Positions 3,848 to 24,897 of a stretch of 24,897 nucleotides of DNA are shown here, piece by piece; position 1 is the first letter of the stretch; every line of letters starts with the position of its first letter. The stretch spans positions 1 through 24,897 of IMG/VR virus record IMGVR_UViG_2547132278_000021. One strand, written 5' to 3'. Below the pieces are notes generated by a model. The model was not told the origin of the DNA and ran no database searches. It was given only the letters and a program-made list of their open reading frames with translations. Both the position numbers and the translations under genes were made by a program. The DNA comes from a virus. Taxonomy: Duplodnaviria; Heunggongvirae; Uroviricota; Caudoviricetes.

Positions 3848-3897
3848 ATACACTCCTGCAATAAAGGGGCCGAAGCCCCTTGTCTGATTCGCGAGGC

Positions 3898-4233: not shown

Positions 4234-4243
4234 CAATATCACC

Positions 4244-4681
4244 TTAACCGGTTACTTTTGAGCGGATCGGATACGGCGTATTGGCATCAACATCAAGACT
4301 GATACCCGCAGTGAATTCGCCAGCCGTTAGTGGGCCAGTTGCGACGGAGTAGTTAACACGCAGATATCGCTGAACACCGGCAGGAACCTTTGCAGAAACA
4401 ACTCGTTTACCTGCTGTCAGGGCGGTCTTTGCCAGTGCACCACTATCATAAATAGTGGTCCATGAGCTGTTATTCTCACTCGTCTGCAACTGGATGTTTA
4501 CAGTTGCCTCACCACTTGCCGTGGCGGCTTCGTTAACCAGCGCCCAAAACTCAAGCGGGTAACCCACGCCGATATCACGACGTTTTCCGTCAATTGGACC
4601 GAGATCGATTACGTCAGTAGAAGCCGCGGTATTCGTAACCGCCTGAGCTTCGGAGAACATCAACAGTTTGTCGGTGATCAT
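4244..4681 (-). CDS. Hypothetical virion protein (145 aa), possible capsid decoration/accessory protein
   Basis: ORF immediately downstream of the major capsid gene; Gly/Thr/Ala/Val-rich composition. Function inferred from position only. Confidence 0.45.
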   Translation of the reverse strand: MITDKLLMFSEAQAVTNTAASTDVIDLGPIDGKRRDIGVGYPLEFWALVNEAATASGEATVNIQLQTSENNSSWTTIYDSGALAKTALTAGKRVVSAKVPAGVQRYLRVNYSVATGPLTAGEFTAGISLDVDANTPYPIRSKVTG

Positions 4682-8404: not shown

Positions 8405-8418
8405 TTCAATGACTCCGG

Positions 8419-8625
8419 TTACTGACCAAGCAGCGTTTTACCGCTGGTATTAGCGGTTGATGTGTCGCCCTGAGAACCGGTAAGCAGCGTAGAACTACGA
8501 CCAGCAGCAGCGCGACGGCGACGAGTTTCTTCGTCGCGGGCATCAACAACGGCGGCATCCTGCTCCTGTGGTGCTGCCTGAACTTCTGGTGTTGCAGGCA
8601 CTGATGGTGAGCTACCCATGCACAT
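8419..8625 (-). CDS. Hypothetical 68-aa low-complexity protein upstream of portal
   Basis: ATG at 8625 is preceded by the same initiation block (GGAGTCATTGA-N-ATG) as the portal gene; Ser/Thr/Ala/Gln-rich. The overlapping 79-aa track ORF 8406..8645 starts on TTG and is less likely. Confidence 0.4.
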   Translation of the reverse strand: MCMGSSPSVPATPEVQAAPQEQDAAVVDARDEETRRRRAAAGRSSTLLTGSQGDTSTANTSGKTLLGQ

Positions 8626-8653
8626 ATCAATGACTCCGTACGCAATTAAATTA

Positions 8654-8730
8654 TTACCAATTTAACCACATATGATTTATTTATCGTAGATAGTTGACAT
8701 TTAACGCACAAATTATTACCTTTCAGGTAA
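8654..8730. promoter_or_regulatory. Operator-like site TTACC-TTTCA-GGTAA (8716-8730) with consensus -35 TTGACA (8694-8699) and a degenerate upstream half-site (8654-8668) at the cassette spacing
   Basis: Perfect 15-bp dyad identical in form to the immunity-region operators. Flank AAATTATTACC matches the flank of the pL-like proximal operator. Transcription direction not resolved. Confidence 0.45.
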
Positions 8731-9052
8731 GCAAAGAGTTCATTCCGGTTATTAACCTGACTGGCTTGTCGTTAAATTGAACAGGTGGAGTGAGCTTTTA
8801 TTTTGAGCAGTACGGCGTATGGCACATGCGCCGATAGCGGTCTGGATACGTTTAAGGGGCACCCTCCCTTGCTCGGGCAAACGAACCAGGTAGCCGGAAT
8901 GTGCAAGTCGAGCGGTTTTATTCCGCGCACGGGGATTCACCATCCCGGCGATTTGGTGTGACGCCTCGGAAGAGACGAGGGTACAACGATGAGAGCATTT
9001 ATGGAGCCGCGACAAAGTGTGGCGCCTTAACAGGCTAAGTGCTCTCAGCGTT

Positions 9053-9129
9053 GTGGCATTAGCTCAGTTGGACAGAGCAACCGCCTTCTAAGCGGTTGGT
9101 CGCAGGTTCGAATCCTGCATGCCACGCCA
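9053..9129 (+). tRNA. tRNA-Arg (anticodon TCT, decodes AGA)
   Basis: 77-nt cloverleaf folded by hand: acceptor GTGGCAT/ATGCCAC, D stem GCTC/GAGC, anticodon stem ACCGC/GCGGT with loop CTTCTAA (U33, TCT, A37), T arm GCAGG-TTCGAAT-CCTGC, discriminator G, encoded CCA. Confidence 0.9.
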
Positions 9130-11884: not shown

Positions 11885-11911
11885 CAAAATAAAGCCGCCA
11901 TAGTTGGCGGC
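11885..11911 (-). terminator. Intrinsic terminator hairpin upstream of terS
   Basis: Minus-strand GCCGCCA-ACTA-TGGCGGC followed by TTTATTTTG. Confidence 0.5.
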
Positions 11912-11951
11912 AGTATTCAAAACCCATCAAATTCATCATGCATAATCTACT

Positions 11952-11965
11952 CGTGACATGTCACA
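11952..11965. repeat. 14-bp element CGTGACATGTCACA, copy 2, overlapping the stop of the Cys-rich gene
   Basis: Identical to 9687-9700. Confidence 0.8.
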
Positions 11966-12299
11966 CTATTAATTTCGTTTCATGCCAGCCTTTAGTCACC
12001 CAGCATTGCGAGTCACCATTACACGGGCATGAATTAACTGGAACTCTCTCGCCGCACTTACCGCAACATTTTCTGCTGATCGATTTTATACGCCCGCGCA
12101 CGCGTGCATCATCCTGGCGGATCAGTAACGCTATATACTCACCAAATTCGTAAGGCGCACGCCCGGGGCGACGCGTGGCACAGTTACGCTCCAGCATTTC
12201 AATTTCCTGAGCATCAAGCACAATTTCCAGCTTACGCACACCAGATGCAGCTTGTCTGGCTCTCTGAGCGGCTTTGCGCTCTGCTGCTGATTTAGCCAT
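11961..12299 (-). CDS. Hypothetical Cys-rich protein (112 aa) with basic Arg/Ala-rich N-terminus
   Basis: ATG at 12299. N-terminus [24 protein letters not shown]-terminus [22 protein letters not shown] suggests metal binding. Sits immediately upstream of the palindrome, terminator and terminase genes. Confidence 0.5.
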
Positions 12300-12633
12300 T
12301 CTGATTTTCCTGCATCATGAGAAATACAATCATGGCGGCGCGGAGAGGTCTGGTATCAAATATTGGTCTTACGCCTTTTGCATCAACACACCATTCAGTT
12401 AACTGGTCTAAGATAGAAATCCTGTGTTTCTCAATAATCGGCCATGAGGCGCTAGGATCATTGCAGTAGTCAGGTAAATGGTTTAATGGCTCAAAAGTTG
12501 TATCAGTATTTCCGTAATACCATTTGTTGGTGTTATTCCCTGATGTTTCCGGTTTACATGCCCAAAGGCCTTTAAAAATTATGTCTCCTACCATTCTGTT
12601 AATTTCAAAATCACTTAACTGTGAATAGTCCAT
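12292..12633 (-). CDS. NinX-like (DUF2591-type) phage protein, 113 aa
   Basis: ATG 12633 overlaps the upstream TGA (ATGA) and follows AGGAGGTG. Family assignment from memory of the [13 protein letters not shown]-terminus; tentative. Confidence 0.5.
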
Positions 12634-13547
12634 CACTTCACCTCCTGCGGCGGTTCTGGTAGAGGCATCCAGTGGGTTACACCGCCAATTGGCTCATCGT
12701 CGTCGTACTCCAATGCGGCTATATAGAACCCGTCACGACGAGAATAAGAAATCCCGGACATTACAATGCCATCCGAAACAACAATAATGTCACCCGTTTC
12801 TTTCGGCATTCGCTCACTACAGCTTATCCAGGCATCCAGAGTTACCGGAACTTGTGGAATGGCTGTCTGCTCTCGAACGTCATTAGGCGCTATAGGTTCT
12901 GCTGCCAACTGACTGGCATATTTGTTAATGGTAACGATAAGCTCTTGCTCAGCCTCATCCAGACAATCACCGATACCTCGCCTGTCACCGTCAAAATCAT
13001 CGAAATCGGCACGAATCCTGGCAACCTTCAGGATTGCGGACAACACCTCACTAGGAATTGCCGGATAGTTGGTTGACGTTTCCGCGATTTCCCGAAAATT
13101 ATTGGTTGACGAATTCTTATTTTCCCGAAAGTTTCCGGACTGAAGCATGGCGGCGCGGCAGGCGTTCCAGCCAGCTGTTCGCCCAAGCGCGTAAACTTCA
13201 GATGGCTCAAGATAATCAATGTCATGCCCGTCCTCATCGTCGTTCTCAGGTAATGCAGCAGGTACTACCGGTACTGGCGGAGCGGCGTAGACTTCAATAA
13301 TCCCATTATCAATAGGCCATTCTCCATCCTTGAGATAGTCACTTGTGCCGTCAACTTGCTGTTCAGCAATGTGGAATGCACCAACTGGCTCTGCTGCCAG
13401 CGATGCCAATGCGATTTCCAAAACAGCAATATCCATTTTATATGTGCGGATGATGTCATGGTCGATTGTGCCTGGTATGCACAGTCTCTGTGCTTCAATA
13501 GTCTCCTCTGCGTGAGTTATTAACTGCTCTCTGGTAAAAGTGGTCAT
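12633..13547 (-). CDS. Hypothetical phage protein (304 aa) with C-terminal DUF551-like motif
   Basis: Ends ...[17 protein letters not shown], characteristic of DUF551 C-termini. Strong AAGGAG Shine-Dalgarno 6 nt before ATG 13547. Confidence 0.6.
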
Positions 13548-13557
13548 GTGTTACTCC

Positions 13558-13821
13558 TTAACCCGCAGTGCTTTCAACTGATGAGGGGAACAAAATCTTT
13601 TCATCAAACCCTGCATTCATATCATGAACAGCAACACACCAATCCACCGACGAACGATTATCAAGAGCCTCCATGATTTCATCCATGCGGCGTAGGTCAT
13701 ACAGGTAAATGTTTTTATCGCCAATGGTGTAAAAGCCAATTTTTTTCGGTGATGGACAGCGATCAATGACGTCCTGTAATTCGTTCAACCATGCCTGTTC
13801 TTTTTTTGTCAAAGTTGCCAT
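13558..13821 (-). CDS. Hypothetical protein (87 aa from internal ATG 13821)
   Basis: ATG 13821 preceded by AAGGAAAA; track start 13911 would overlap the upstream gene. Confidence 0.45.
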   Translation of the reverse strand: MATLTKKEQAWLNELQDVIDRCPSPKKIGFYTIGDKNIYLYDLRRMDEIMEALDNRSSVDWCVAVHDMNAGFDEKILFPSSVESTAG

Positions 13822-13822
13822 A

Positions 13823-14041
13823 TCAGTTTTCCTTATACGGATTAATTTTATTGTGCAGTGTGTTGAACGGGGCCCATACAACGTCGTTATACAATTCAAT
13901 AACGGGCTCAATTACTTTTCCGATTATCCAGGCCAGTAATAGCGGGGATATCGGTATCATCAACACGATAAACAGAATGAGAAACAAAAATTCTGTCGCT
14001 CTACTTTTTCGCGGATATTCTTTTCTGAATAATGTAGTCAT
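13823..14041 (-). CDS. Small membrane protein (72 aa, one predicted transmembrane helix)
   Basis: Basic N-terminus then hydrophobic FLFLILFIVLMIPISPLLLAWIIG. Locally AT-rich by eye, and preceded by a 143-bp AT-rich gap containing palindromes. Confidence 0.5.
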   Translation of the reverse strand: MTTLFRKEYPRKSRATEFLFLILFIVLMIPISPLLLAWIIGKVIEPVIELYNDVVWAPFNTLHNKINPYKEN

Positions 14042-14125
14042 TTCTTACCGCCCTTTCGGACGGTCTCCTGATGTTCTGAGGGTGCAGGAATCCCTCCGGT
14101 TAAGGATTAAATTTTATTTACAGAA

Positions 14126-14152
14126 CTGAATTTAATTATTCAGATATACGTA
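14126..14152. promoter_or_regulatory. Palindrome-rich AT-rich intergenic region upstream of the small membrane protein gene
   Basis: CTGAAT-TTAATT-ATTCAG inverted repeat (14126-14143) and ATACGTAT (14145-14152). Confidence 0.3.
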
Positions 14153-14184
14153 TCTGTAACCTTACGAACCTACTCACTGGATGC

Positions 14185-14658
14185 CTATTTCATAAAAATA
14201 ATCCAGTGGGTTTTATCGTTTTTTCCTGTTCGTTGACCGATAACAGGCTTTCTGTCGGTCAGTGCCAATATTTGGCGAACAGGTATTTGCGTTTCATTCC
14301 ATTTAAAAATCAGAACGCCGTATGGCCACAACACACGAAAGGCTTCTTTAAATCCCTGCCGCAAATCATCACGCCAGGTATCTTTATTCATCCGTCCATA
14401 TTTCTTTCTCATCCAGGCGTTATCACCAACACGTTCAAGATGCGGAGGGTCGAATACAACAACCGGAAACGATGCGTCTGCAAATGGTAATGCACGAAAA
14501 TCTGCTATCAGGTCAGGGCTAATTATCAGCCGTCGTCCATCACATAATGTGTGCTCTTCCTTTCTGATATCGCTAAATATCGCCCGGTCGTCATTCTTAT
14601 CGAACCAGAACATGCGACTGCCACAGCACATGTCGAGGATTGTTGCATGTCCAGTCAC
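14185..14658 (-). CDS. Small phage Dam-like N6-adenine DNA methyltransferase (157 aa)
   Basis: SAM-binding motif I-like ILDMCCGS near the N-terminus and catalytic DPPH (DPPY-type) motif in VVVFDPPHL. GTG start at 14658 overlaps the upstream TGA. Confidence 0.6.
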   Translation of the reverse strand: MTGHATILDMCCGSRMFWFDKNDDRAIFSDIRKEEHTLCDGRRLIISPDLIADFRALPFADASFPVVVFDPPHLERVGDNAWMRKKYGRMNKDTWRDDLRQGFKEAFRVLWPYGVLIFKWNETQIPVRQILALTDRKPVIGQRTGKNDKTHWIIFMK

Positions 14659-15188
14659 TGGTTGCCTCCTTTGCGAAGCTGGGAGGCTAACTCATCACAT
14701 ATGTGCGTCAAAGAGCAAAGTTTGATTGATGGATGTTCGCGCATCATCTCCACCCCCTGTGCCCGTACTTCAGCCAGGAAAGCGTCGGTAGCTGGAATGG
14801 GCTTTTGTGGTGATATGGCTATGAGAATTGTCTCAAGGTCTGGATCCGTTTCCGCTGTTGGTACCCTGATATAACCCATCTGCACCCCATTCATGATGAA
14901 CCTGCGACGGTCATCACATATCGCCTTTAGCCCCGCATTCTCCGCAGCCAGCACCGAAAACTTCTCGTGTGCCAACTTAACAGCCGCATCAGCCTGCTTA
15001 ATTGACTCAATCGCTTTCTGCTGGTCTTCGGCCAGCGCATTAGCACGCACCAGTTGCACTTCCAGTTGCGTTGCCAAATCGCTGATCAGCTTTGCCACAC
15101 TGCGCATATCAACGGCACCACATTCTGCTTTCAGTTCCGAAGCCATCTCATGCCCGGCGGAAACTAACCCTTTGATATTACTTTCCAT
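14655..15188 (-). CDS. Hypothetical protein (177 aa), coiled-coil N-terminal half
   Basis: ATG 15188 preceded by GAGGG; no recognisable catalytic motif. Confidence 0.5.
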   Translation of the reverse strand: MESNIKGLVSAGHEMASELKAECGAVDMRSVAKLISDLATQLEVQLVRANALAEDQQKAIESIKQADAAVKLAHEKFSVLAAENAGLKAICDDRRRFIMNGVQMGYIRVPTAETDPDLETILIAISPQKPIPATDAFLAEVRAQGVEMMREHPSIKLCSLTHICDELASQLRKGGNQ

Positions 15189-15249
15189 CTTTACCCTCGC
15201 TTATCCACATAACTTATTGATTACATTGATAACTAAAAAGATCGTCGAT

Positions 15250-15594
15250 TCAGAACTCTTCGATGTTCCAGCCACCACCTGCTTTCTTTGGTTTAACCGT
15301 TACCCCGATGATTCGGAACGGATACTGATCTGCGGCGACTTTGGTTTTCACCCTGGCGTCGTCGGTCCAGAAACCTTTCACTTCGTGTAGTTCCATCTCG
15401 CCGGTGGCGAGCATCACAGCAAAATCGGGCGTATAGAACGTGTTGTCAGCTAACCGCAGCTTGATACCCTCGAATCGATACCAGGCGATTTCCCCTGCAC
15501 GTTTACGCTGCTCAAGGTGCTGGCAATACGCAGATTCTGTTTTGTTCATCTGGCCTGTTTGGAGTCGACCAAGAGCCTGTATCTGTTTTCTCAT
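15250..15594 (-). CDS. DUF1064-like phage protein, possible PD-(D/E)XK-fold nuclease (114 aa)
   Basis: Motif YTPDF...EMELHEVKG is compatible with a D...E.K nuclease core. First gene after the internal promoter-operator cassette. Confidence 0.5.
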   Translation of the reverse strand: MRKQIQALGRLQTGQMNKTESAYCQHLEQRKRAGEIAWYRFEGIKLRLADNTFYTPDFAVMLATGEMELHEVKGFWTDDARVKTKVAADQYPFRIIGVTVKPKKAGGGWNIEEF

Positions 15595-15597
15595 GAT

Positions 15598-15674
15598 TTA
15601 CCTCTAAGGTAATTAAAAACCACATAAGACACGAAATCAATAGATCTAAGAATATTTTGTTACCTATCAGGTAA
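15598..15674 (-). promoter_or_regulatory. Internal promoter-operator cassette: operators TTACC-TCTAA-GGTAA (15598-15612) and GTTACC-TATCA-GGTAAC (15659-15675) flanking -10 TTTAAT (15612-15617) and -35 TTGATT (15635-15640)
   Basis: Two perfect dyads 62 bp apart centre to centre, the same spacing and layout as the pL-like cassette; 17-bp spacer between the hexamers. Confidence 0.6.
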
Positions 15675-15686
15675 CTATTGAGGCGT

Positions 15687-15706
15687 AAAAAAATGCGCTA
15701 TCGCGC
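15687..15706 (-). terminator. Weak terminator-like element after the P-like gene
   Basis: Minus-strand GCGC-GATA-GCGC hairpin followed by TTTTTTT; only a 4-bp stem. Confidence 0.3.
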
Positions 15707-15711
15707 TGGTA

Positions 15712-16512
15712 TTACTTGATAAATCCTGCCGCCTTTCCCCGCCTGTATTCCTCCATCAGCCACTGCGCCGGTGTTATTCCCCCAAGGGTGGCGGCGTTAG
15801 GCATGCACCCGAAACTTCGCCCTGGTGGATGGTAAACGTCTCTCCCTGTGTCCGGAGGTGTACTCATGGGCTCTGGCTTTGCCTGTATGCTGATCACCGG
15901 ATCGGGTATCTGCTGTCCGGAAGCCACCTTTTTCGCCCAATCATCGAGCAGCCTGCGCGCGTGTTTCTCAACCTCAATCTCGCTAAGCTGGCGCTGATAC
16001 ATTGCACGGCGGGTATCACATACGACCCAGTACATAACCGGATGTCGCCACGGGAATCTTTCGGGACCACCAGGATATAAACTTTTTTCCTTGCTGTACC
16101 GGTGAAACTCCGCCATCACATCGTCAATGGTGACGCCAAGAACCATCTTGCTGTCTTTGCACCACTTGATAAATTGCCCTGGCGACGGCCAGAACGGAGA
16201 TTCACTGGCGCGGGCGTGGCGCATACCAGCAGAAACCTGTTCACGGGTTCGGATCCCCCCTTCGGCAAACGCAGCAATCCACTGCTGTTTTGCAGCAACT
16301 TCCTGCTCTGGCGTCTTCAGGTTGGTTACCACTGCCGCCGGAAACAGTTGTTTCAACTGTTTGAAAAGGGCATCAACAAGCCTCTCTGCTGACATGTTCA
16401 CCACATTGTCATTGTTGACGTACTGATGCTCATAACCTGACATGCGAGAAAGGGCTTCTCCGTCACGGTTTTGTATCGCGGTAAAAACGTTGTTCACAAG
16501 AAATCCTCCCAC
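15712..16512 (-). CDS. Lambda P-like replication protein (helicase loader), 266 aa; start codon uncertain
   Basis: QWIAAFAEGGIRTREQVSAGMRHARASESPFWPSPGQFIKWCK parallels the lambda P core (QWVLAFRENGITTMEQVNAGMRVARRQNRPFLPSPGQFVAWCR, recalled from memory). Track start is a GTG overlapping the O-like gene 3' end. Confidence 0.8.
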   Translation of the reverse strand: MGGFLVNNVFTAIQNRDGEALSRMSGYEHQYVNNDNVVNMSAERLVDALFKQLKQLFPAAVVTNLKTPEQEVAAKQQWIAAFAEGGIRTREQVSAGMRHARASESPFWPSPGQFIKWCKDSKMVLGVTIDDVMAEFHRYSKEKSLYPGGPERFPWRHPVMYWVVCDTRRAMYQRQLSEIEVEKHARRLLDDWAKKVASGQQIPDPVISIQAKPEPMSTPPDTGRDVYHPPGRSFGCMPNAATLGGITPAQWLMEEYRRGKAAGFIK

Positions 16513-17357
16513 GCTTCAGGGCTGTTCCAGTGCGGAACGTTGTTATCAGGTAATGTTGATTGCTTCTGTCTGCTAATCTGCAGCCGCCTTGCCAGCTTCT
16601 GCTCCCACTGTGCCTGATGGTATGCCTTACCCTCAGCCATCCAGTAAATTCTGAACTCTGCAAGTTCCTGTGCCGTTGGCAGACTGTCCAGGTAGATTCC
16701 CTGCAATGAGCTTTTCCGAAGAAAGTCATCTGATGGCTGCCATTGTTCATGCATGACAAATTTGCCTAATTGCCCTGGCCCACCAGGAGGAACAAAGTTA
16801 TTCATCACGGCGTTGTTTGCGCCGGGGTCATGAGGCACAGAATCCCCGGTTTTTGTCCTGCTCTCCCTCTCTTGGTTAAATGACTGGTTATATGACTGGT
16901 TCTGGATCCCGTTTTTGGGATCATTCAACATCCCGTTTTTGGGATCATTCAACATCCCGTTTTTGGGATCATTCAACATCCCGTTTTTGGGATCATTCAA
17001 CATCCCGTTTTTGGGTATATTCCCGTTTTCGGGAACATTACCGTTTTCGGGTTCATTACCCCCTTCCCGGTTGCCTTTAATGTTCCCTTTTTTGGTTATA
17101 TTAAGAGAGAAAACCCGTACTCTTTTCGTCGCCCCCTTTCTCTCTCCGGTATCTGAAATAAGCCCCATTTTCATGAGCGATATAAGCCCGGCCTGCACGG
17201 TTTTTTTATTCAGGCAAGTGTCTTTAACGAGGCGTTCTATGCTGGGGTAGCAGAGGTTATATTCATCGGCTCTGTCAGCCATCGAGAGCAGTATGAGCTT
17301 TAATGACGAGCTACCTGGATCTGTCTCCCAGGCCCAATCTGTTGCATGTCTGCTCAT
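16494..17357 (-). CDS. Lambda O-like replication initiator (287 aa) with internal origin repeats
   Basis: N-terminal winged-helix-like region (LKLILLSMADRADEYNLCYPSIERLVKDTCLNKKTVQAGLISL), central PKNGMLND repeats encoded by the iterons, and a C-terminal domain. GGAGA Shine-Dalgarno before ATG 17357. Confidence 0.8.
   Translation of the reverse strand: MSRHATDWAWETDPGSSSLKLILLSMADRADEYNLCYPSIERLVKDTCLNKKTVQAGLISLMKMGLISDTGERKGATKRVRVFSLNITKKGNIKGNREGGNEPENGNVPENGNIPKNGMLNDPKNGMLNDPKNGMLNDPKNGMLNDPKNGIQNQSYNQSFNQERESRTKTGDSVPHDPGANNAVMNNFVPPGGPGQLGKFVMHEQWQPSDDFLRKSSLQGIYLDSLPTAQELAEFRIYWMAEGKAYHQAQWEQKLARRLQISRQKQSTLPDNNVPHWNSPEAWEDFL
16906..17001. repeat. Candidate replication origin iterons: four perfect 24-bp direct repeats (ATCCCGTTTTTGGGATCATTCAAC), with degenerate copies to ~17060
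   Basis: Seen directly in sequence. Each unit carries an ATCCC...GGGAT dyad. Location inside the initiator gene mirrors lambda ori. Confidence 0.75.
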
Positions 17358-17372
17358 GATTAATCTCCGCTA

Positions 17373-17573
17373 TCAGCTTGAATGTTGTGGGGAGGAATTA
17401 ATCATGATCTGCTTAATCTCTGCCCTGATGCGACGGTTTGATTCCATGGTGCACTCAACACAGTGTCCGTTGTAAACCCAGCGTTCACTGTCATGTCCGT
17501 GCTTACATGGTTTTCCGGTGTAGTAGCGTTTAAGTCCGCGCTTTGCGGCATCAATACGTGTAATGATTTCCAT
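17373..17573 (-). CDS. Hypothetical zinc-finger-like protein (66 aa from ATG 17573)
   Basis: C-x-H-G-H ... C-V-E-C arrangement (KPCKHGHDSERWVYNGHCVEC). Track start 17636 is a TTG with no Shine-Dalgarno. Confidence 0.4.
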   Translation of the reverse strand: MEIITRIDAAKRGLKRYYTGKPCKHGHDSERWVYNGHCVECTMESNRRIRAEIKQIMINSSPQHSS

Positions 17574-17652
17574 GGTAAGCCCTGTTATTAGTATTGGGAT
17601 TACGGTTATTTTGTGCTGACACAAAAAAAAGATCAACCAGATTTGGTTTTTT

Positions 17653-17667
17653 GTTACCTTTGAGGTA
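17653..17667. promoter_or_regulatory. Imperfect operator TTACC-TTTGA-GGTAC directly after the cro-distal terminator
   Basis: One mismatch from the TTACC-N5-GGTAA dyad. Confidence 0.4.
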
Positions 17668-17678
17668 CGAATAGATAT

Positions 17679-17700
17679 GAAAAGACCGCCGGATGGCGGT
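17679..17700 (-). terminator. Intrinsic terminator after the Cro/CII-like gene (tR1-like position)
   Basis: Perfect 7-bp stem GACCGCC / GGCGGTC with loop, followed on the minus strand by TTTTC. Confidence 0.5.
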
Positions 17701-17723
17701 CTACAGAGGTTTGTGGCTGGATA

Positions 17724-17954
17724 TCATGAGTAGAAGAAGTATGCCAGTTCTGCTTTTGAGCGCAGCCATTGTCTTGTTTTACAGGCTTTAAAAAGCCCAT
17801 TCATCAATACCTTACCTGGCATTTTGCGCTTACCTGTTAAGTGAGTCTGGATATAGTGACTCGTCGTTCCGGCTTCCTGTGCGAAGGCTTCACGCTCATC
17901 CGGAGTAAGTGCAAGCCAGTGCTTTTTGAAATCGAAATGTCCGTTATCGCTCAT
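17724..17954 (-). CDS. Cro/CII-like HTH regulator (76 aa), first gene of the early-right operon
   Basis: Divergent from the repressor gene. Helix-turn-helix-like stretch EAFAQEAGTTSHYIQTHLTGKRKMP; FDF...AFAQ resembles CII-type regulators of 186-like phages (from memory). Confidence 0.55.
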   Translation of the reverse strand: MSDNGHFDFKKHWLALTPDEREAFAQEAGTTSHYIQTHLTGKRKMPGKVLMNGLFKACKTRQWLRSKAELAYFFYS

Positions 17955-17990
17955 AGCTATTGCCTGATATTTATTTCAGATAATAAATAT

Positions 17991-18053
17991 TCACCCATAA
18001 GGTAACAAAAATCAAGGATAGTTACCTATGAGGTGCATTTACCTGTTGGGTAA
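17991..18053. promoter_or_regulatory. Immunity-region operator cluster (OR-like): TCACC-CATAA-GGTAA (17991-18005), TTACC-TATGA-GGTGC (18022-18036), TTACC-TGTTG-GGTAA (18039-18053)
   Basis: Three dyads in the 154-bp divergent intergenic region between the cro-like and repressor genes. Candidate cro promoter hexamers TTGTTA/TATTAT overlap the first site. Confidence 0.65.
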
Positions 18054-18108
18054 TATTGCTTTAAATTGAATCATCTACTGATTCATATATGAGGCGATTT
18101 TCCAGAAA

Positions 18109-18693
18109 ATGAAAAGTATCCAGGACGTCCGCAGGCAAAATCTCAACGACTTGATCGACCGTGAATTCAATGGTGTTCAGACGCGGATGGCAGAAAAACT
18201 TGGAACTCAGGCAAATCTGGTAAACCGCTGGGCTCTTGGCAAGAAGGTTATCGGCGACCAGGTTGCGCGAAAAATTGAAGCTGCCGCCAATAAACCACGT
18301 AACTGGCTTGATATCGATCGCTCGCTTTCTCAAGAAGGTTTTCAGCCTGTCGGCCCGAGTGATATAGGTCAGCTGGCTGCTCACAACCTGGAACGCTGGA
18401 TGAGCGAAAGCCGCGACCTTTCAACGCAGGGAAAACTACACCGCGCATCCGGCGTCGCCCAGGTGACAATCAGCCGCCTGTTAAACAATGAGGTCAGCGT
18501 TTCCATTTCCACCCTGGAGAATGTTGCATCCGCATTCGGGCGTCATGGCTATGAATTACTGATTCACCCGCACGACCCTGCGACTATCAACTATGACCGC
18601 TCGCGCTACGCATTGTTACCCGAAACCGAGAAAGCAAAGATCGAAAGTTACATTGAATTTGTCATCAACCAGAACGAAAAAAGCAAACAATAA
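18109..18693 (+). CDS. Phage immunity repressor candidate: tandem double-HTH (XRE-type) protein with no LexA/S24-like cleavage domain (194 aa)
   Basis: Two HTH-like segments (TRMAEKLGTQANLVNRWALGKK and LHRASGVAQVTISRLLNNEV); divergent from the early-right operon; followed by a strong terminator. Confidence 0.65.
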   Translation: MKSIQDVRRQNLNDLIDREFNGVQTRMAEKLGTQANLVNRWALGKKVIGDQVARKIEAAANKPRNWLDIDRSLSQEGFQPVGPSDIGQLAAHNLERWMSESRDLSTQGKLHRASGVAQVTISRLLNNEVSVSISTLENVASAFGRHGYELLIHPHDPATINYDRSRYALLPETEKAKIESYIEFVINQNEKSKQ

Positions 18694-18713
18694 AACTATA
18701 GTTTTCAGCAAGT

Positions 18714-18739
18714 AAGCCGCCTCATGGCGGCTTTTTTAT
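18714..18739 (+). terminator. Intrinsic terminator after the repressor gene
   Basis: GCCGCC-TCAT-GGCGGC followed by TTTTTT. Confidence 0.7.
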
Positions 18740-18750
18740 TGCCGAAAAGA

Positions 18751-18827
18751 TTACCTTGCAGGTAATTTTTTTAACTCATATCTATTGACATCAAACCAGA
18801 TACGCATAATTATTACCCCAACGGTAA
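18751..18827 (+). promoter_or_regulatory. pL-like promoter-operator cassette: operators TTACC-TTGCA-GGTAA (18751-18765) and TTACC-CCAAC-GGTAA (18813-18827) flanking -35 TTGACA (18785-18790) and -10 AATTAT (18808-18813)
   Basis: Consensus -35, 17-bp spacer; the proximal operator begins at the last base of the -10; operator centres 62 bp apart. Confidence 0.65.
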
Positions 18828-18846
18828 CAAGCCGAGGTAACAAGTT

Positions 18847-19008
18847 ATGCAGTGGAAAATCATCAACGGTTGGTACTGCGTTACTGCATGCGGATTCATG
18901 AGCTGGAAGTTCCGCACCTTACAGGAAGGCATTAAGTGGGCTTTCGTCAGCAAAGAAGCTCGCGATGTGGCCAACGATAACGAGATATGGGAGGAGGTTA
19001 GCAAATGA
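18847..19008 (+). CDS. Small Trp-rich protein (53 aa), first gene of the early-left operon; not in the ORF track
   Basis: ATG 18847 with GAGGT Shine-Dalgarno 8 nt upstream; stop TGA overlaps the next gene's ATG (ATGA). Translation MQWKIINGWYCVTACGFMSWKFRTLQEGIKWAFVSKEARDVANDNEIWEEVSK. Confidence 0.5.
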   Translation: MQWKIINGWYCVTACGFMSWKFRTLQEGIKWAFVSKEARDVANDNEIWEEVSK

Positions 19009-20039
19009 GTGAATTATCAATCATCGAAATCACACCAGACATGGCACCAAGAATTTACGTTGAAAAAGGGCTGGAAAAGTTTCTCGAGCAGATCCGTGAA
19101 GGTGTTAATGAAGTGCCTGACATTAGCACAGACAAAGGCAGAAAGCGCATTGCATCTCTGGCTGCGAAGGTTTCAAGAAGTAAAACAGCGGTAGAAAAAC
19201 CAGGACGTGATTATCTTAAACGCCTGAAAGAACAGCCGAAAGTAGTTGAAGCAGAGTTACGACGCTTCGTAACCGAATGCGATCGGCTTCGTGATGAAGT
19301 ACGCCGCCCACTCACCGAGTGGGAAAATGCTGAGAAATTACGCACTGAAGCACTGCAACAACGCCTGACAAATTTGCGAGCACTAGCTGACGTGATCGAT
19401 CTCTCCGGAAACTACTTGCCATCATCTGACATTCAGGAACGAATTCAAGAGGCTAAATCAGTAGCACTTGATGAAAGTTGGCAGGAGTACGCAGCAGAAG
19501 CTGGAGTAGCCAAGGATTCAACCATCCAGAAACTGGAAGAATCACTCGCAGTAGCTCAAAAACGCGAGCATGAAGCCGCTGAGCTGGAGCGACTTCGCAA
19601 AGAAGCGGAGGAAAAAGCGCGCATTGAGCGAGAAGAGAATATCCGCCGGGAAGCTGCTGAACAGGCCAGGCTCGAAGCTGAACAAAAAGCGAAAGCTGAA
19701 ATTGAGGCTGCGGCACGCCTGGCGGCGGAAGAAAAAGCACGTGCTGAAGTAGCAGAACGTCAGCGAATTGAAGCAGAGCAGCGTGCACGACGCCAAAAAG
19801 AAGAAGCCGTTGCCGAGGAACGCCGACGCCAAGAGGCGGCAGAAAAAGCCCGCCTTGACGAACAGAAGCGTATCGCCGACGAAGAAGCGCGCCGAGCTGC
19901 AGATAAAGAGCATCGCCGTACCGTTAACCGCAGAGTAATCGCAGATCTGATAGCCCAAGGCATACCCGAAGAATTCGCGCAGAAAGCAATGTTGGCTATC
20001 GCTGGCGGCAAAGTGCAGGACGCGTATATCAAATATTGA
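19005..20039 (+). CDS. Hypothetical coiled-coil protein (344 aa) of the early/recombination operon
   Basis: Strong GGAGGAGG Shine-Dalgarno; ~110-aa N-terminal domain, long E/A/R/K-rich heptad region, short C-terminal domain. Confidence 0.6.
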   Translation: MSELSIIEITPDMAPRIYVEKGLEKFLEQIREGVNEVPDISTDKGRKRIASLAAKVSRSKTAVEKPGRDYLKRLKEQPKVVEAELRRFVTECDRLRDEVRRPLTEWENAEKLRTEALQQRLTNLRALADVIDLSGNYLPSSDIQERIQEAKSVALDESWQEYAAEAGVAKDSTIQKLEESLAVAQKREHEAAELERLRKEAEEKARIEREENIRREAAEQARLEAEQKAKAEIEAAARLAAEEKARAEVAERQRIEAEQRARRQKEEAVAEERRRQEAAEKARLDEQKRIADEEARRAADKEHRRTVNRRVIADLIAQGIPEEFAQKAMLAIAGGKVQDAYIKY

Positions 20040-20046
20040 GGTGGGT

Positions 20047-20346
20047 ATGAACGTTAATCAGCAGAAAAATCTTCAAAAAATCATGCTGGCATTCGACAAG
20101 GACTACCGCCTGTCAGAACAGCTATATGACCGACAAGTTGAACTGATCGATAGCATCCGGCTTCATCAACTGGCCTCAACTTTTGACGCTGTAACAGGCA
20201 AAGGAGTTCGCCAGGAAGTGCTGGAGGCAGCTAAAGACAGCCCTGAGTTCGAAGAACTGATGGATGCCTACCGGCGCGAGGCAATGGCAATTATCGCCCG
20301 CTGGGATCTGGCGGATCGGATTGATGGGCAGAGGGAAGCGGCATGA
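20047..20346 (+). CDS. Hypothetical protein (99 aa from ATG 20047)
   Basis: ATG follows GAGGTGGGT; stop overlaps the RecE-like start (ATGA). Track start 20041 is a GTG. Confidence 0.5.
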   Translation: MNVNQQKNLQKIMLAFDKDYRLSEQLYDRQVELIDSIRLHQLASTFDAVTGKGVRQEVLEAAKDSPEFEELMDAYRREAMAIIARWDLADRIDGQREAA

Positions 20347-21164
20347 AACCGGGAATTTATTTCGACATCAGCAACGAAGACTACCACGCCGGTGACGGCG
20401 TGAGTAAGTCGCAACTGGACATGGTTGCCAAGAATCCGGCGCTTCTTAAATGGGTTCAGGCAGCACCAGAAGACGAAGAGAAAAAGTCTGCACTGGATAT
20501 GGGAACCGCATTGCACTGTCTGCTTCTGGAGCCTGGAGAATTCGACAAACGCTTCATTGTTTCACCGAAGTTCGATCGTCGGACGAAACAAGGTAAAGCT
20601 GACGAAGAAGCATTTCTTCGTGATGTAGCGGATATGGGGATTACGGTACTTGATGCCGAGCAGTGGCGGAAACTGGAGCTGATGCGTGATAGCGCAATGG
20701 CTCACCCGGCGGCACGCTGGATGCTGGAAGCACCTGGTTACTGCGAAGCATCAATGTACTGGAATGATGAAGAGACTGGTGAGTTGTGCCGCATTCGTCC
20801 AGACAAATGGCTGAACGAGCACAACGTGATCGTCGACGTGAAAAAGGTTGCAGATATGGACCGTTTTGCACGCCACATCGAGGAATTCCGCTACCACGTG
20901 CAGGACGCAATGTACCGCGAAGGCGCAATGAGGGTTACTGGTCAGCCGCATGGTTTTTTCTTTCTTGCCGTGAGCGAAAGCATTGATTGTGGTCGGTATC
21001 CGGTACGCGTGTTCGAGCTGGATGCGCAGGATGTCGATGCCGGGCACGCTCTGTTCCGCCGGGATCTGAATACCTATCACGAATGCCGCATCAATGATGA
21101 ATGGGGCGGTGTGGAAATCATTAAACGCCCTGAGTGGGCACGCAAACAGGATATGTACATATGA
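20343..21164 (+). CDS. RecE-like exonuclease (exonuclease VIII C-terminal-domain type, PD-(D/E)XK), 273 aa
   Basis: N-terminus MKPGIYFDISNEDYHAGDGVSKSQL and nuclease motifs ...RIRPDKW...IVDVKKV; immediately upstream of and coupled to recT. Confidence 0.65.
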   Translation: MKPGIYFDISNEDYHAGDGVSKSQLDMVAKNPALLKWVQAAPEDEEKKSALDMGTALHCLLLEPGEFDKRFIVSPKFDRRTKQGKADEEAFLRDVADMGITVLDAEQWRKLELMRDSAMAHPAARWMLEAPGYCEASMYWNDEETGELCRIRPDKWLNEHNVIVDVKKVADMDRFARHIEEFRYHVQDAMYREGAMRVTGQPHGFFFLAVSESIDCGRYPVRVFELDAQDVDAGHALFRRDLNTYHECRINDEWGGVEIIKRPEWARKQDMYI

Positions 21165-22102
21165 GCAACGACATCGCAAACATCAACGCACCAGTAGACA
21201 CAGCAATCGCTGGAACTGCTGCAACTATTTTCAGCCCAGACGGCTTGAACCAACTGATGAAATTCGCCGAGGTAATGGCGCAAAGCCGCGTAACGGTACC
21301 GGCGCACCTCGCCGGGAAACCAGCTGATTGCATGGCCGTGGCAATGCAGGCTGCGCAGTGGGGAATGAACCCGTTTGCCGTGGCTCAGAAAACCCATGTT
21401 GTGAACGGCACGCTAGGTTATGAAGCCCAATTAGTAAACGCAGTTATCTCAACGATGTCGCCAACAAAAGATCGCATCAACTACGAGTGGTTCGGGCCGT
21501 GGGAACGAGTGATCGGTAAGTTTGTTGAGAAAACATCCAAAAACGGCAATCCATATATCGCACCAGGCTGGACTCTAAAAGACGAAGAAGGCTGCGGTGT
21601 TCGCGTATGGGCAACCATGAAGGGCGAGGATCAACCTCGAGTGCTTGAGTTAATGCTGTCTCAAGCACAGGTAAGAAACTCCACACTTTGGGCCAGTGAT
21701 CCGAAACAACAACTCGCATACCTTGCGACAAAACGCTGGTCTCGCCTGCACTGTCCTGACGTAATCATGGGCGTCTACACCCCAGACGAATTACAGGAAA
21801 CGGCACCGCGCGTTGAGCGAGACATTACTCCGCAAACGACCACTGCTGCGGGAATGAACAGTCTGATCAACGCTAAACCAGCGAAAAAGCCTGATGAGCA
21901 AACGCGTAAATCGGACGGCCGTGATCCAGAAGAAATGCTGATGGCCTTTACCAGCGCAGCGATGAATTACAGCACTGTCTCCGAACTGGATAAGGCTTAC
22001 AAATACATTGCACAAAAACTTTCAGATGATGACGAACTGCTGACAAAAGCCACCGACGTTTACAGCGTTCGTCGGGAAGAATTAAACGAAACATCTATGT
22101 AA
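21161..22102 (+). CDS. recT: RecT-family single-strand annealing recombinase (313 aa from ATG 21161)
   Basis: Conserved region CMAVAMQAAQWGMNPFAVAQKTHVVNGTLGYEAQL. ATG 21161 overlaps the RecE-like TGA; the track's earlier start 21134 lies inside the upstream gene. Confidence 0.75.
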   Translation: MSNDIANINAPVDTAIAGTAATIFSPDGLNQLMKFAEVMAQSRVTVPAHLAGKPADCMAVAMQAAQWGMNPFAVAQKTHVVNGTLGYEAQLVNAVISTMSPTKDRINYEWFGPWERVIGKFVEKTSKNGNPYIAPGWTLKDEEGCGVRVWATMKGEDQPRVLELMLSQAQVRNSTLWASDPKQQLAYLATKRWSRLHCPDVIMGVYTPDELQETAPRVERDITPQTTTAAGMNSLINAKPAKKPDEQTRKSDGRDPEEMLMAFTSAAMNYSTVSELDKAYKYIAQKLSDDDELLTKATDVYSVRREELNETSM

Positions 22103-22151
22103 CCACCACCGCGGCGCCACACGCGCCGCACTGCAACCAAGAGAGGTATTT

Positions 22152-22400
22152 ATGAAAGGTGCATTAGGTAAGAAGGAACTCCTGGCGGTGGTGCCACTGT
22201 CATGGAGCACTATCGACCGTATGGAGCGCGCAGGGGAATTTCCTAAACGCTGGTATATCACCGATAAACGCTGCGCATGGAACCGTGACGAAGTTGAGCG
22301 TTGGCTTGATGAACGTCAAGCAGCAAGCCCGGCAGAGTTCCAGGGTAAAAAACCTCCTGTTCAGCAACGTGTATATCGTCCCGTGAGCAACGCTGCATGA
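22152..22400 (+). CDS. AlpA/Xis-family DNA-binding protein (putative excisionase), 82 aa
   Basis: LLAVVPLSWSTIDRMERAGEFPKRWYITDKRCAWNRDEVERWL fits the AlpA/MerR-type excisionase pattern; GAGG Shine-Dalgarno. Confidence 0.65.
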   Translation: MKGALGKKELLAVVPLSWSTIDRMERAGEFPKRWYITDKRCAWNRDEVERWLDERQAASPAEFQGKKPPVQQRVYRPVSNAA

Positions 22401-22509
22401 GTGCGCTGCTAAGGCACTGGAGCAAATGGTCAGGATGGTACTTATTCCTGGCCTCTGTTTCAGCATGGCTTTATCTGCTGGCATTAATTTTCAGAGAGGG
22501 TTGGATTAA

Positions 22510-22809
22510 GTGAGAAAGTTAAGCCGACTTGAAAAATATCACATGAACAAGGTTTCAATGCGCAGCCCTTCAAAGGTTGTTGCCGTTACTCCTGCGGCGA
22601 TAGAGATCGAAAAACGCGCGATTGAAAGAGAGAAAAAAGGGCAGTTCCGCATTGCCGCCCACCTTTGGCTTCAGTGTATGGATGTTGCTTCTGGTGATGT
22701 TGAGCGTGCAAGGATCGCGGTTCGCAGGGACCAATGTATCACAAAAGGTAACGGCCTTCGCCGTGGCGACTATAGCGGAATAGGATGTTGCGGGGTGGTT
22801 TATGACTAA
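22510..22809 (+). CDS. ANR-like small regulator (start uncertain: GTG 22510, ATG 22543 or ATG 22558)
   Basis: Pattern G.F..AA.LW.......E.AR..A.RRD.C resembles small ANR-family proteins (from memory); 3' end overlaps the MT-A70 start. Confidence 0.4.
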   Translation: MRKLSRLEKYHMNKVSMRSPSKVVAVTPAAIEIEKRAIEREKKGQFRIAAHLWLQCMDVASGDVERARIAVRRDQCITKGNGLRRGDYSGIGCCGVVYD

Positions 22810-23452
22810 GAAATACACGCTAATATATGCAGATCCACCCTGGGTATACCGGGACAAAGCCGCAGATGGTAATCGCGGTGCCGGTTTTAAATATCCGGTT
22901 ATGAGTGTGCTGGATATCTGCCGCCTTCCTGTGTGGGATTTGGCCGATGAAAACTGTCTGTTGGCCATGTGGTGGGTGCCAACACAACCACTCGAAGCAC
23001 TAAAAGTTGTTGAAGCCTGGGGATTCCGTCTTATGACCATGAAGGGCTTCACGTGGATAAAATGTGGTAGTCGGCAACCAGATAAACTGGTTATGGGTAT
23101 GGGACACATGACTCGCGCCAATAGTGAAGATTGCCTGTTTGCGGTAAAGGGAAAACTACCTCCGCGCATTAATGCAGGTATCGTTCAGTCATTTACCGCA
23201 CCGCGGCTTGAGCATTCAAGAAAACCAGATGTCGTTCGTGAAAAACTTGTGCAATTGTTAGGCGATGTTTCTCGCATTGAACTGTTCGCCCGCCAGTCGT
23301 CTCATGGCTTCGATGTTTGGGGTAATCAGTGCGAAGACCCAGCAGTGCAACTACACCCTGGATACGCGTTGGATATTGGCGGGTTAACAAATGCATTCAG
23401 AAATGCTCCGCTGTCACCAACAGACAACCAGGGGCGGGAGCGTGCAGCATGA
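22802..23452 (+). CDS. MT-A70-family adenine methyltransferase (216 aa)
   Basis: N-terminal LIYADPPWVY catalytic DPPW motif typical of MT-A70-like phage methyltransferases. Confidence 0.75.
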   Translation: MTKKYTLIYADPPWVYRDKAADGNRGAGFKYPVMSVLDICRLPVWDLADENCLLAMWWVPTQPLEALKVVEAWGFRLMTMKGFTWIKCGSRQPDKLVMGMGHMTRANSEDCLFAVKGKLPPRINAGIVQSFTAPRLEHSRKPDVVREKLVQLLGDVSRIELFARQSSHGFDVWGNQCEDPAVQLHPGYALDIGGLTNAFRNAPLSPTDNQGRERAA

Positions 23453-23643
23453 ACAGGGCATCACCAGCAGATTTAAGGAAATGCCTTGAAACTGCAAACA
23501 TGCTTGCACAAAGCGGGATCAGGTTTGTTCCAGTTCCCGCTGTCACTGATGCTGAATTTGCAACGCTGTCAGCAATATTCCAAGACAAAATTGAATCACT
23601 GGCAGCAGAAGCCGAGATGGAAGAAAATCAGCAGAATAATTAA
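23449..23643 (+). CDS. Small phage protein, DUF1382-like (64 aa from ATG 23449)
   Basis: ATG 23449 overlaps the MT-A70 TGA (ATGA). Translation MNRASPADLRKCLETANMLAQSGIRFVPVPAVTDAEF...; track start 23329 lies inside the methyltransferase gene. Confidence 0.5.
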   Translation: MNRASPADLRKCLETANMLAQSGIRFVPVPAVTDAEFATLSAIFQDKIESLAAEAEMEENQQNN

Positions 23644-23646
23644 ACG

Positions 23647-24897
23647 TTATTCCCCCGCCATCCATTTCTCAAACTTCGACGGGGAGAACGGAATCAGATC
23701 CGTATGCTCCCCGTCAATCCAAGAATCAATCATATCGGCCCACTGCTGCAACATGTAGGCGCGCTGTCTGGCGTATTCCGCTTTGTTATATACGGCGCGC
23801 ACACCTTTCTGCTCATGTGCCAGAGCCTTTTCAATCCAGTCTGAAGGATAACCAGCCTCATGCAACAACGTACTGGCTGTACGGCGCATATCGTGTACGG
23901 TGAAGTCCTGAATATGCTCACCATCTTCATTTATTATTTTCACCGTTCTGTCGATCAGAGAGTTCAGTGCGGCATTAGATAATGGCTTCCTGAAATTGTA
24001 ACGACCAGGAACCAGGTATTCACTTCCACCAGCGCACATCTGCAACCCGACCAATATATCCTGTGCCTGTTTAGGCAGGTAAATAACGTGCGCCCGACTT
24101 CCCTTCATGCGGTCTGAAGGAATTGTCCATGTCCATTTTTTAAAATCTATTTCATCCCACGTTGCATTGGTGAATTCGCCTTTACGAACCATAGTGATAA
24201 GCACCAGCTTTAAAGCCATTTTCATAGTGCCCATAGCACCAATGGCATCCAGCATGCGGAAGAACAGGCCAATTTCTTCTGGTGTCAGTGTTCGCTCTCG
24301 TGGTTTAAATATGGCGATAGACGAAGGTTTAATGTCAGCCGCAGGATTAAACAAACCATGACCACGGTCATTGGCGTGACGGTATACGCTGCTGATGATC
24401 TCCCTGGCCTGCACTGCTGTTGCCCGGCCACCGCGTTCGACAATCCGGTCACACAAATCACGAACCATCGATGTGGTAATTTCAGCCATCATTTTGTTGC
24501 CAAGAACCGGAAGTATGTCACGGTCGATCACCGCCTGCTTCATTGCGCGGGTACTGTCAGCCAGGATGACGTGTTTCATATAACTGTCGGTATGTACCGC
24601 AAACGTCTCGGCACCACGAATCTTTTTGATACCGTCACGTTTAGCCGCAGCCGGTGATTGGCCTGCTTTAAGCAGCTTTTTTGCAGCAATCAGTTCTTCT
24701 CGCGCTTCTGCCAGGCTGATACCGTCACGCCCATACTGCCCGATTACCAGTGTTTCGCGGCGACCGTTGATACGGTAGTCATAGCGAAACGAGACCGTGC
24801 CTGACGTAAGCACAGCTACATACAGCCCGTCACGATCGGAAACTTTGTACAGTTTGTCCTGTGGCTTGAGGTTCTTTAATTTTGTATCGGTAAGCAC
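23647..24897 (-). CDS. int: Tyrosine integrase (P4-type), 416 aa; start codon at the window edge
   Basis: N-terminus MLTDTKLKNLKPQDKLYKVSDRDGLYVAVLTSG is a classic phage integrase arm-binding domain; C-terminal ...HDMRRTASTLLHEAG...AHEQKGVRAVYNKAEY holds catalytic H/R/Y. The first codon (24895-24897) is GTG; att is expected just beyond the window. Confidence 0.85.
   Translation of the reverse strand: MLTDTKLKNLKPQDKLYKVSDRDGLYVAVLTSGTVSFRYDYRINGRRETLVIGQYGRDGISLAEAREELIAAKKLLKAGQSPAAAKRDGIKKIRGAETFAVHTDSYMKHVILADSTRAMKQAVIDRDILPVLGNKMMAEITTSMVRDLCDRIVERGGRATAVQAREIISSVYRHANDRGHGLFNPAADIKPSSIAIFKPRERTLTPEEIGLFFRMLDAIGAMGTMKMALKLVLITMVRKGEFTNATWDEIDFKKWTWTIPSDRMKGSRAHVIYLPKQAQDILVGLQMCAGGSEYLVPGRYNFRKPLSNAALNSLIDRTVKIINEDGEHIQDFTVHDMRRTASTLLHEAGYPSDWIEKALAHEQKGVRAVYNKAEYARQRAYMLQQWADMIDSWIDGEHTDLIPFSPSKFEKWMAGE

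Follow-up and report, generated by a model that had tools for sequence, protein, structure and literature searches.

The window analysed here, which is the whole 24,897-nucleotide stretch of the IMG/VR virus record IMGVR_UViG_2547132278_000021, carries two solitary methyltransferase genes, one in each of the early operons that run divergently on either side of the phage repressor gene. The first (14185–14658, minus strand, GTG start) encodes a small S-adenosylmethionine (SAM)-dependent amino-methyltransferase of 157 amino acids (aa), which matches phrog_954 and the PADLOC families MTase_II/oMTase. The second (22802–23452, plus strand) encodes an MT-A70 family methyltransferase of 216 aa, which is a member of Pfam PF05063 and of phrog_359 (E = 8e-120). 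We lean, if only a little beyond even chances, towards the view that derepression leads to the production of both enzymes, which would then methylate the phage DNA as it replicates and so protect the progeny in advance in new hosts.

By DNA comparison, the window can be classified as a phiV10/epsilon15-type (Uetakevirus) temperate podophage integrated in Escherichia coli, and not as a lambdoid phage. In DNA searches of positions 22100–24897, phiV10 matched over the full length at 98% identity and epsilon15 over 69% of the stretch at about 81%. The annotated gene order of phiV10 is also that of the window and comprises the repressor, the early-left genes, RecE/RecT, AlpA, a PerC-like gene, the methyltransferase, DUF1382, and a convergent P4-type integrase. 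On the minus strand, a cro-like gene, a DnaT/O-like gene, a lambda-P-like replication gene, and accessory early genes lie beyond the immunity region and are followed by the terminase. The small gene had been assigned to a "nin region"; since the phage is phiV10/epsilon15-like rather than lambdoid, this term is merely an analogy, although a NinX-family ORF (open reading frame) was indeed found by ORF scan at 12292–12636.

Solitary status and nearby nucleases

The 9.3-kb span from 14185 to 23452, at whose ends the two genes lie, consists mostly of unrelated replication, immunity, and recombination genes. A first-pass annotation of this DNA had placed a methyltransferase gene at each end of the span, with no restriction endonuclease beside either, and both points are borne out. 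The small gene is recognised by phrog_954 and PADLOC and the second gene by a Pfam MT-A70 match over the whole profile. With regard to the endonuclease, all sizeable ORFs that lie up to about 5 kb from one or the other gene were compared with Pfam, PHROGs, and PADLOC; no restriction-enzyme family was matched within this distance, and the only PADLOC defence matches were the two methyltransferases themselves. The adjacent cognate endonuclease that marks a type II restriction-modification system is absent, and the neighbours are all phage early, replication, or recombination genes.

Two nuclease-fold ORFs do occur in the region. One is a DUF1064 protein annotated as Holliday-junction resolvase-like (15250–15594, minus strand; Pfam E = 3.5e-7, phrog_190), whose gene follows the replication genes, and the other is a RecE-like PD-(D/E)XK exonuclease (20343–21164, plus strand; Pfam DUF3799, E = 1.2e-22), which pairs with a RecT annealase (21134–22102, plus strand; Pfam RecT, E = 2.4e-44; phrog_412/phrog_561 for the pair). 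In addition, a DUF1064 homologue is called "putative restriction endonuclease" in one Salmonella phage record. These ORFs could suggest that one of the methyltransferase genes belongs to a cryptic restriction-modification or defence system with an unrecognised nuclease, but we consider this extremely improbable. Both nuclease genes are present in phiV10, which is without the small methyltransferase; in another phiV10-like prophage that has both, the genes separating DUF1064 from the small methyltransferase are different; and homologues of the 157-aa protein in Listeria, Gordonia, Acinetobacter, Bacteroides, Vibrio, Streptococcus, and Helicobacter phages are also without an endonuclease partner. 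By family and gene order, the DUF1064 and RecE-like proteins are classed as replication/recombination nucleases and not as cognate restriction enzymes. The orphan status of both predicted methyltransferases is therefore supported by the lack of a restriction-family match, by the occurrence of the nucleases in phiV10 without the small methyltransferase, and by the solitary homologues.

As a separate observation on the recombination genes, phiV10 p37 is annotated as a single RecE-RecT fusion (7243–9003) across the counterpart of 20343–22102, whereas the window and E. coli UTME-3 have two overlapping ORFs in different frames (RecE-like, 273 aa, and RecT, 322 aa), and thus one of the records differs by an indel or frameshift.

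It could also be supposed that one or both methyltransferase genes are inactive remnants. Truncated versions occur in some genomes, phrog_11564 and phrog_6151 span only half of the protein, partial matches were also obtained, and an IS629-disrupted copy has been described for phage PA2. However, both ORFs in the window are full length and keep every invariant residue, and the small gene has a strong Shine-Dalgarno sequence, AAAGGAGG, located 7 nt 5′ of its GTG, which makes this supposition very improbable for the present phage.

The 157-residue enzyme

The membership of the small protein in a minimal phage methyltransferase family is based on full-length profile matches to phrog_954 "DNA methyltransferase" (E = 1.8e-86) and to the REBASE-derived PADLOC models MTase_II PDLC03288 (8.4e-73) and oMTase PDLC03730 (5.1e-50). 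The family signature DxCCGS...DF...DPPH is retained, in which motif I is D8-M-C-C-G-S (residues 8–13) and motif IV is D69-P-P-H72. The sole Pfam match, Methyltransf_11, lies below the threshold (18.4 bits versus a cut-off of 21.2), and an NCBIfam scan gave nothing meaningful.

The protein had been described as Dam-like, which proved to be wrong. It matches no Dam-family profile in Pfam, has no useful NCBIfam match, places motif I before motif IV, and is without a target-recognition domain; a Dam-type identity was rejected. The K-12 protein YfdM, which is named as a "putative Dam methylase" in the literature and has a phage phenotype, was likewise considered and is unrelated to the 157-aa enzyme; nor is there any relationship between the ORFs that lie upstream of these two genes.

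Of two AF2 models, the first was made with a shallow alignment limited to sequences of 75% identity or more; its pLDDT was 56.6, and it was discarded. The second, for which the alignment was widened with 54–66% identical homologues, reached 90.6. The second model is a pared-down Rossmann methyltransferase with motif I ahead of motif IV. Between the SAM motifs and the position of DPPY, where Dam-style enzymes have a recognition domain, only a short conserved beta-hairpin (residues 33–45) is found in the model, in the place of a possible recognition element. The top Foldseek match of the model was Trm11 (E = 6e-6), with M.TaqI (2e-4) and class I methyltransferases also matched. PDB sequence searches, with the single sequence and with a profile, returned chance or generic matches only. 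By motif and modelled fold, the protein is predicted to be an amino-methyltransferase.

The family is large. A word-indexed search gave 6851 relatives, most of which are named "class I SAM-dependent methyltransferase", and an exhaustive search gave 411 clusters (50% identity level) at E ≤ 1e-30; all members are short. The N-terminal extensions of some members were examined as a hidden DNA-binding domain and rejected in this role, since they are heterogeneous and non-homologous; they are probably upstream-ORF or start-codon artefacts. The E. coli protein is 43–64% identical to the homologues in the phages of the seven genera listed above, and the host phyla include Proteobacteria, Firmicutes, Actinobacteria, and Bacteroidota. 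In an alignment of ten sequences, L7, D8, G12, D29, R31, D52, F53, and D69-P-P-H72 are invariant. In the same alignment, the motif I cysteines C10 and C11 are kept in at least 90% of the sequences, and a third cysteine, in the "LCDGR" hairpin, is conserved in most. Within E. coli, 941 of 5426 complete genomes contain a near-identical DNA copy of the small gene.

The conservation of the family is far above what is usual for phage early genes. This would fit an enzyme that methylates a universally conserved host molecule other than DNA, such as a guanine or adenine amino group in tRNA or rRNA, or a protein. We regard such a substrate as unlikely. The REBASE-derived PADLOC models and the PHROG class the family as DNA methyltransferases, and the gene lies in replication/early modules, at times adjoining other DNA methyltransferase genes (Gordonia RavenCo17, Bacteroides LoVEphage). 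Furthermore, a sequence-nonspecific DNA enzyme would show equal conservation, and the fold search also gave M.TaqI as a significant match. Literature searches turned up no experimental work on the family, and the labels "methylates cytosine residues" (A118) and "N-4 cytosine MTase" (Streptococcus phage IPP22) come from database annotation only.

The GTGA at the start of the small gene overlaps the stop of the ORF before it, and the two are coupled in translation. This eae/Ea22-like early ORF (14655–15188, minus strand; phrog_492) contains the recombination joint with phiV10-type DNA, and phiV10 homology starts only at window position 14769 (query position 1270), within the ORF. The methyltransferase gene and its downstream spacer match lambdoid phages, such as PhiR42_1 at 89% DNA identity; for an Stx2c phage, the protein identity is 94%. 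The spacer itself, directly 3′ of the gene (13823–14184, minus strand), is AT-rich with two short hairpins and is followed by a 72-aa, apparently hydrophobic ORF (MTTLFRKEYPRKSRATEFLFLILFIVLMIPISPLLLAWIIGKV...).

An internal repressor-type promoter had been proposed for the small gene, and this is unsupported. No dedicated promoter was detected for the gene in the promoter scan. The promoter-like site that heads the early-right operon, on the cro side (18008–17980, minus strand), was recognised by consensus match only, with 9/12 matches, and the small gene lies 3.3 kb downstream of it, at the far side of the replication genes through which the operon runs. Terminator-like hairpins stand between the two. 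The scan placed one at 17702–17683 (minus strand); for the other, the sequence of the spacer behind the P-like gene can be read as a GCGC-GATA-GCGC hairpin and a subsequent run of T, at a position corresponding to an annotated terminator of phiV10.

The MT-A70 enzyme and the proposed role of the pair

The second enzyme is a member of PF05063 (78.6 bits versus a curated cut-off of 23.9; profile positions 1–172 of 172; E = 7e-22), and its description as an MT-A70-type gene close to the integrase was correct. DPPW occupies residues 11–14 (YADPPWVY, 9–16), so that motif IV comes first, near the N-terminus, and it aligns with the DPPW of 7f4r/7f4l. In the PDB, the best sequence matches are 7f4r/7f4l (E about 4e-13), entries with the name "MT-a70 family protein", and METTL3. 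On sequence, the protein is assigned to the beta-class N6-adenine methyltransferases of the M.EcoGV/M.EcoPA8orf6770P type. Enzymes of this class act as dimers (PMC7544214).

The gene belongs to a block at the end of the early-left operon. At its head is an AlpA-family regulator/excisionase-like gene (22152–22400, plus strand; Pfam Phage_AlpA, E = 3.1e-5, phrog_66), followed by a small PerC-family regulator (22510–22809, plus strand; Pfam PerC, E = 6e-7, phrog_868, E = 6.5e-62), the MT-A70 gene, and a small DUF1382 ORF (23449–23643, plus strand; Pfam DUF1382, E = 1.2e-30). The PerC-like ORF overlaps the MT-A70 start codon by 8 nt, and the ATG of DUF1382 overlaps the MT-A70 stop (ATGA); short overlaps of neighbouring genes are normal in such tightly packed operons. 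The annotated start of phiV10 p34 corresponds to 22543 within the PerC-like ORF. The operon is headed by a promoter-like site, TTGACA-N17-AATTAT (18785–18813, plus strand; promoter scan), from which to 23643 no terminator-like site was reported on the plus strand. Upstream lie the CI-type repressor gene with two helix-turn-helix (HTH) motifs (18109–18693, plus strand; Pfam HTH_3; phiV10 p40) and the terminator-like hairpin after it (18714–18733), which was found by scan and is an annotated terminator in phiV10. Convergent with the operon is the P4-type tyrosine integrase (23647–24897, minus strand), whose ORF, taken from the ORF list, extends to the final base of the window and whose region is 98% identical to the phiV10 p31 region.

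At an identity of at least 95%, the PerC-like/MT-A70/DUF1382 cassette is present in 538 of the 5426 complete E. coli genomes and is annotated with those names; a scan of viral contigs for MT-A70 loci gave copies 97–100% identical only. The gene directly 5′ of the methyltransferase varies between lineages. It is PerC-like here, PNB-2 in PA8, a 67-aa ORF in Lys19259Vzw, DUF1317 in a Klebsiella phage (where it stands between PerC and the methyltransferase), and DUF4060 in a Hafnia phage; HK639 and a Stenotrophomonas phage are additional lineages with other upstream genes, among which a 55-aa ORF also occurs. A conserved, dedicated partnership of the PerC-like protein with the enzyme was considered and rejected because the upstream gene differs in every lineage examined.

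A challenge to DNA as the substrate comes from the PA8 enzyme, M.EcoPA8orf6770P, the closest homologue that has been studied by experiment. Gong et al. (PMC10810198) reported that this enzyme alone has weak, non-specific activity, that it associates 1:1 with PNB-2, which is encoded upstream, and that the complex prefers 16S rRNA over DNA by more than 13-fold. It was also reported that the PA8 gene raises spontaneous prophage induction and virulence, and that the C-terminal tail of the enzyme may be important for holoenzyme formation with PNB-2 (PMC10810198). Residues 1–187 of the MT-A70 protein, the catalytic core, are about 83% identical to the Stx2a-phage enzyme, including that of PA8, whose sequence agrees with the mutagenesis primer published by Gong et al. 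Accordingly, the MT-A70 protein of the window might be mainly a 16S rRNA methyltransferase that tunes prophage induction, partnered by the PerC-like or the DUF1382 protein instead of PNB-2. The small overlapping ORFs on both sides of the gene, and the conservation of the MT-A70/DUF1382 pair in both phage lineages (the PA8 ORF 3′ of the methyltransferase is also DUF1382, E = 1e-27), favour this possibility. On the other side, PNB-2 is absent (the upstream ORF is of the PerC family and unlike PNB-2 in sequence), the gene in this position is different in each lineage examined, the C-terminal residues (about 27) proposed for the PNB-2 holoenzyme are replaced by another tail, and the base modified by the PA8 enzyme has not yet been identified by Gong et al. 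(PMC10810198). We consider this possibility clearly less likely than not. A broader version, in which the prophage would carry two translation-directed methyltransferases, with the 157-aa protein as an effector on conserved host RNA or protein and the MT-A70 protein acting on rRNA as in PA8, seems quite improbable.

With regard to methylation of phage DNA by both enzymes, which we prefer, restriction self-protection is the conventional role of such genes and a plausible candidate by family and position. We infer the substrate, specificity, timing, and biological benefit of both enzymes from family membership and gene position. Briefly, two independent, unrelated solitary SAM-dependent amino-methyltransferases would each be encoded in a repressor-controlled early operon, and both would therefore, as gene order suggests, be produced mainly after induction or infection. 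The MT-A70 enzyme would most likely act on adenines of the phage DNA during its replication, the specificity on record for a close relative being GATC, while the 157-aa enzyme would most likely place a further methyl mark, with a short or relaxed specificity, on nucleic acid and probably on DNA. Between them, the two enzymes would methylate the progeny genomes in advance and so shield them from restriction in the host that they enter next.

Several points weigh against this account. The E. coli host already carries Dam, so extra GATC methylation would bring no obvious gain there. The depletion of GATC in the window is mild (observed/expected 0.75) and similar to that of other palindromes, and GATC avoidance was rejected as a specificity footprint because this value is not distinctive. 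The nearest solved folds of the 157-aa enzyme are tRNA/rRNA and small-molecule methyltransferases, with Trm11 on top and M.TaqI lower. In addition, the PA8-type MT-A70 enzyme is weak on DNA in vitro (PMC10810198), and in lysogens the methyltransferase genes of E. coli prophages are frequently not expressed (PMC4659465).

The observation holds but is an ordinary one, as both genes are common and already carry annotations in phages of the phiV10 type and in the genomes of hundreds of E. coli strains, and solitary prophage methyltransferases have been well described in E. coli (PMC4659465, PMC7544214). Solitary methyltransferases are routine cargo of temperate phages, and the finding matters little as it stands. 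The remaining interest has two sources. One is the question of DNA or RNA as the substrate of the MT-A70 type: a Stx-phage version was recently claimed to be the first rRNA methyltransferase of a prophage with an influence on induction and virulence, and the phiV10-type variant, with another tail and without PNB-2, is a natural comparison for this PA8 claim. The other is the 157-aa family, which is abundant and strikingly conserved, has no biochemical characterisation in the literature searched, and would be a cheap methylome target.

Phage context and comparison with known systems

Some other features of the window are also worth recording. Four perfect 24-bp direct repeats (TGGGATCATTCAACATCCCGTTTT) at 16916–17007 lie within the gene for the DnaT/O-like replication protein, where they code for four copies of NDPKNGML. 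Since each repeat holds one GATC and a fifth GATC is present at 16905, the array resembles an origin of the iteron type with a cluster of Dam sites, and GATC clustered at a candidate origin could connect with a phage-borne GATC methyltransferase. A tRNA-Arg with anticodon UCU, which reads the rare AGA codon, occurs at 9053–9129 (plus strand; Rfam, 73 bits, with ARAGORN concurring) among the virion genes; its neighbour, the large terminase gene, lies on the other strand. In the early-left operon, a 344-aa ORF (19005–20039, plus strand) is inserted between the counterparts of phiV10 p39 and p38. Its product is rich in Glu, Ala, Arg, and Lys and is without a Pfam or PADLOC match, and the AT composition of the region is strongly skewed. 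In the 7.2-kb early region (11900–19100), at most 77% is found in one place in any of the 5426 complete E. coli genomes searched, so this mosaic of accessory early genes is not exactly replicated among them.

Among known systems, phiV10 is the closest. Its p33 corresponds to the MT-A70 gene, with 98% DNA identity and equal neighbours and orientation to the integrase. For the "adenine methylase" of phiV10 p33 and epsilon15 no notable difference was found, the block AlpA-PerC-methyltransferase-DUF1382-integrase being shared, and these records are annotated by similarity only. The small methyltransferase, which the type phage phiV10 is without, is a mosaic insert in the phiV10-type backbone. Its own relatives are the small phage family represented by phrog_954, Listeria phage A118 gp50, and the E. 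coli "class I SAM-dependent methyltransferase", which have the same length, motifs, and solitary early-operon position; identity is 97% to the E. coli cluster P0001, 94% to a Stx2c phage, and 53% to A118 gp50.

Trm11 (tRNA m2G10) and M.TaqI (a gamma-class N6-adenine DNA methyltransferase) are the nearest solved folds bearing the (D/N)PP(Y/F/H) motif, and they share with the 157-aa enzyme the Rossmann order in which motif I precedes this motif IV. However, identity is just 16–19%, and both add large substrate-binding domains (THUMP and a C-terminal recognition domain, respectively) that are absent here. The Dam enzymes of E. coli and T4 and those of phages T1 and VT2-Sa are likewise solitary adenine methyltransferases, although neither protein of the window matches these families; a possible common target with the MT-A70 enzyme is GATC, through M.EcoGV. 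The latter, from E. coli O104:H4, is described in a passage of PMC10810198 as highly similar to the PA8 enzyme and as methylating GATC in vivo when over-produced, and a table in an independent methylome paper (PMC6602927) gives it as GATC-specific.

The likeness to PA8/M.EcoGV comprises the MT-A70 core with DPPW, the downstream DUF1382, and a location near the integrase end of the prophage. DNA homology between PA8 and the window begins at 22801, one base 5′ of the ATG, breaks at residue 177 or so (window position 23333), and resumes inside DUF1382. The MT-A70 core and DUF1382 form a module common to phiV10-type podophages and Stx2a phages (22801–23539 versus PA8 3781–4475), with one recombination joint at the methyltransferase ATG and another at about residue 177, which leaves lineage-specific C-terminal tails. 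The terminator motif of PA8 gp7/gp6 is absent from the window. The two systems differ in that the final 30 or so residues are unrelated, the tails diverging from about residue 178, in that a PerC-like gene stands in place of PNB-2, and in that the phage of the window is a podovirus of a different genus.

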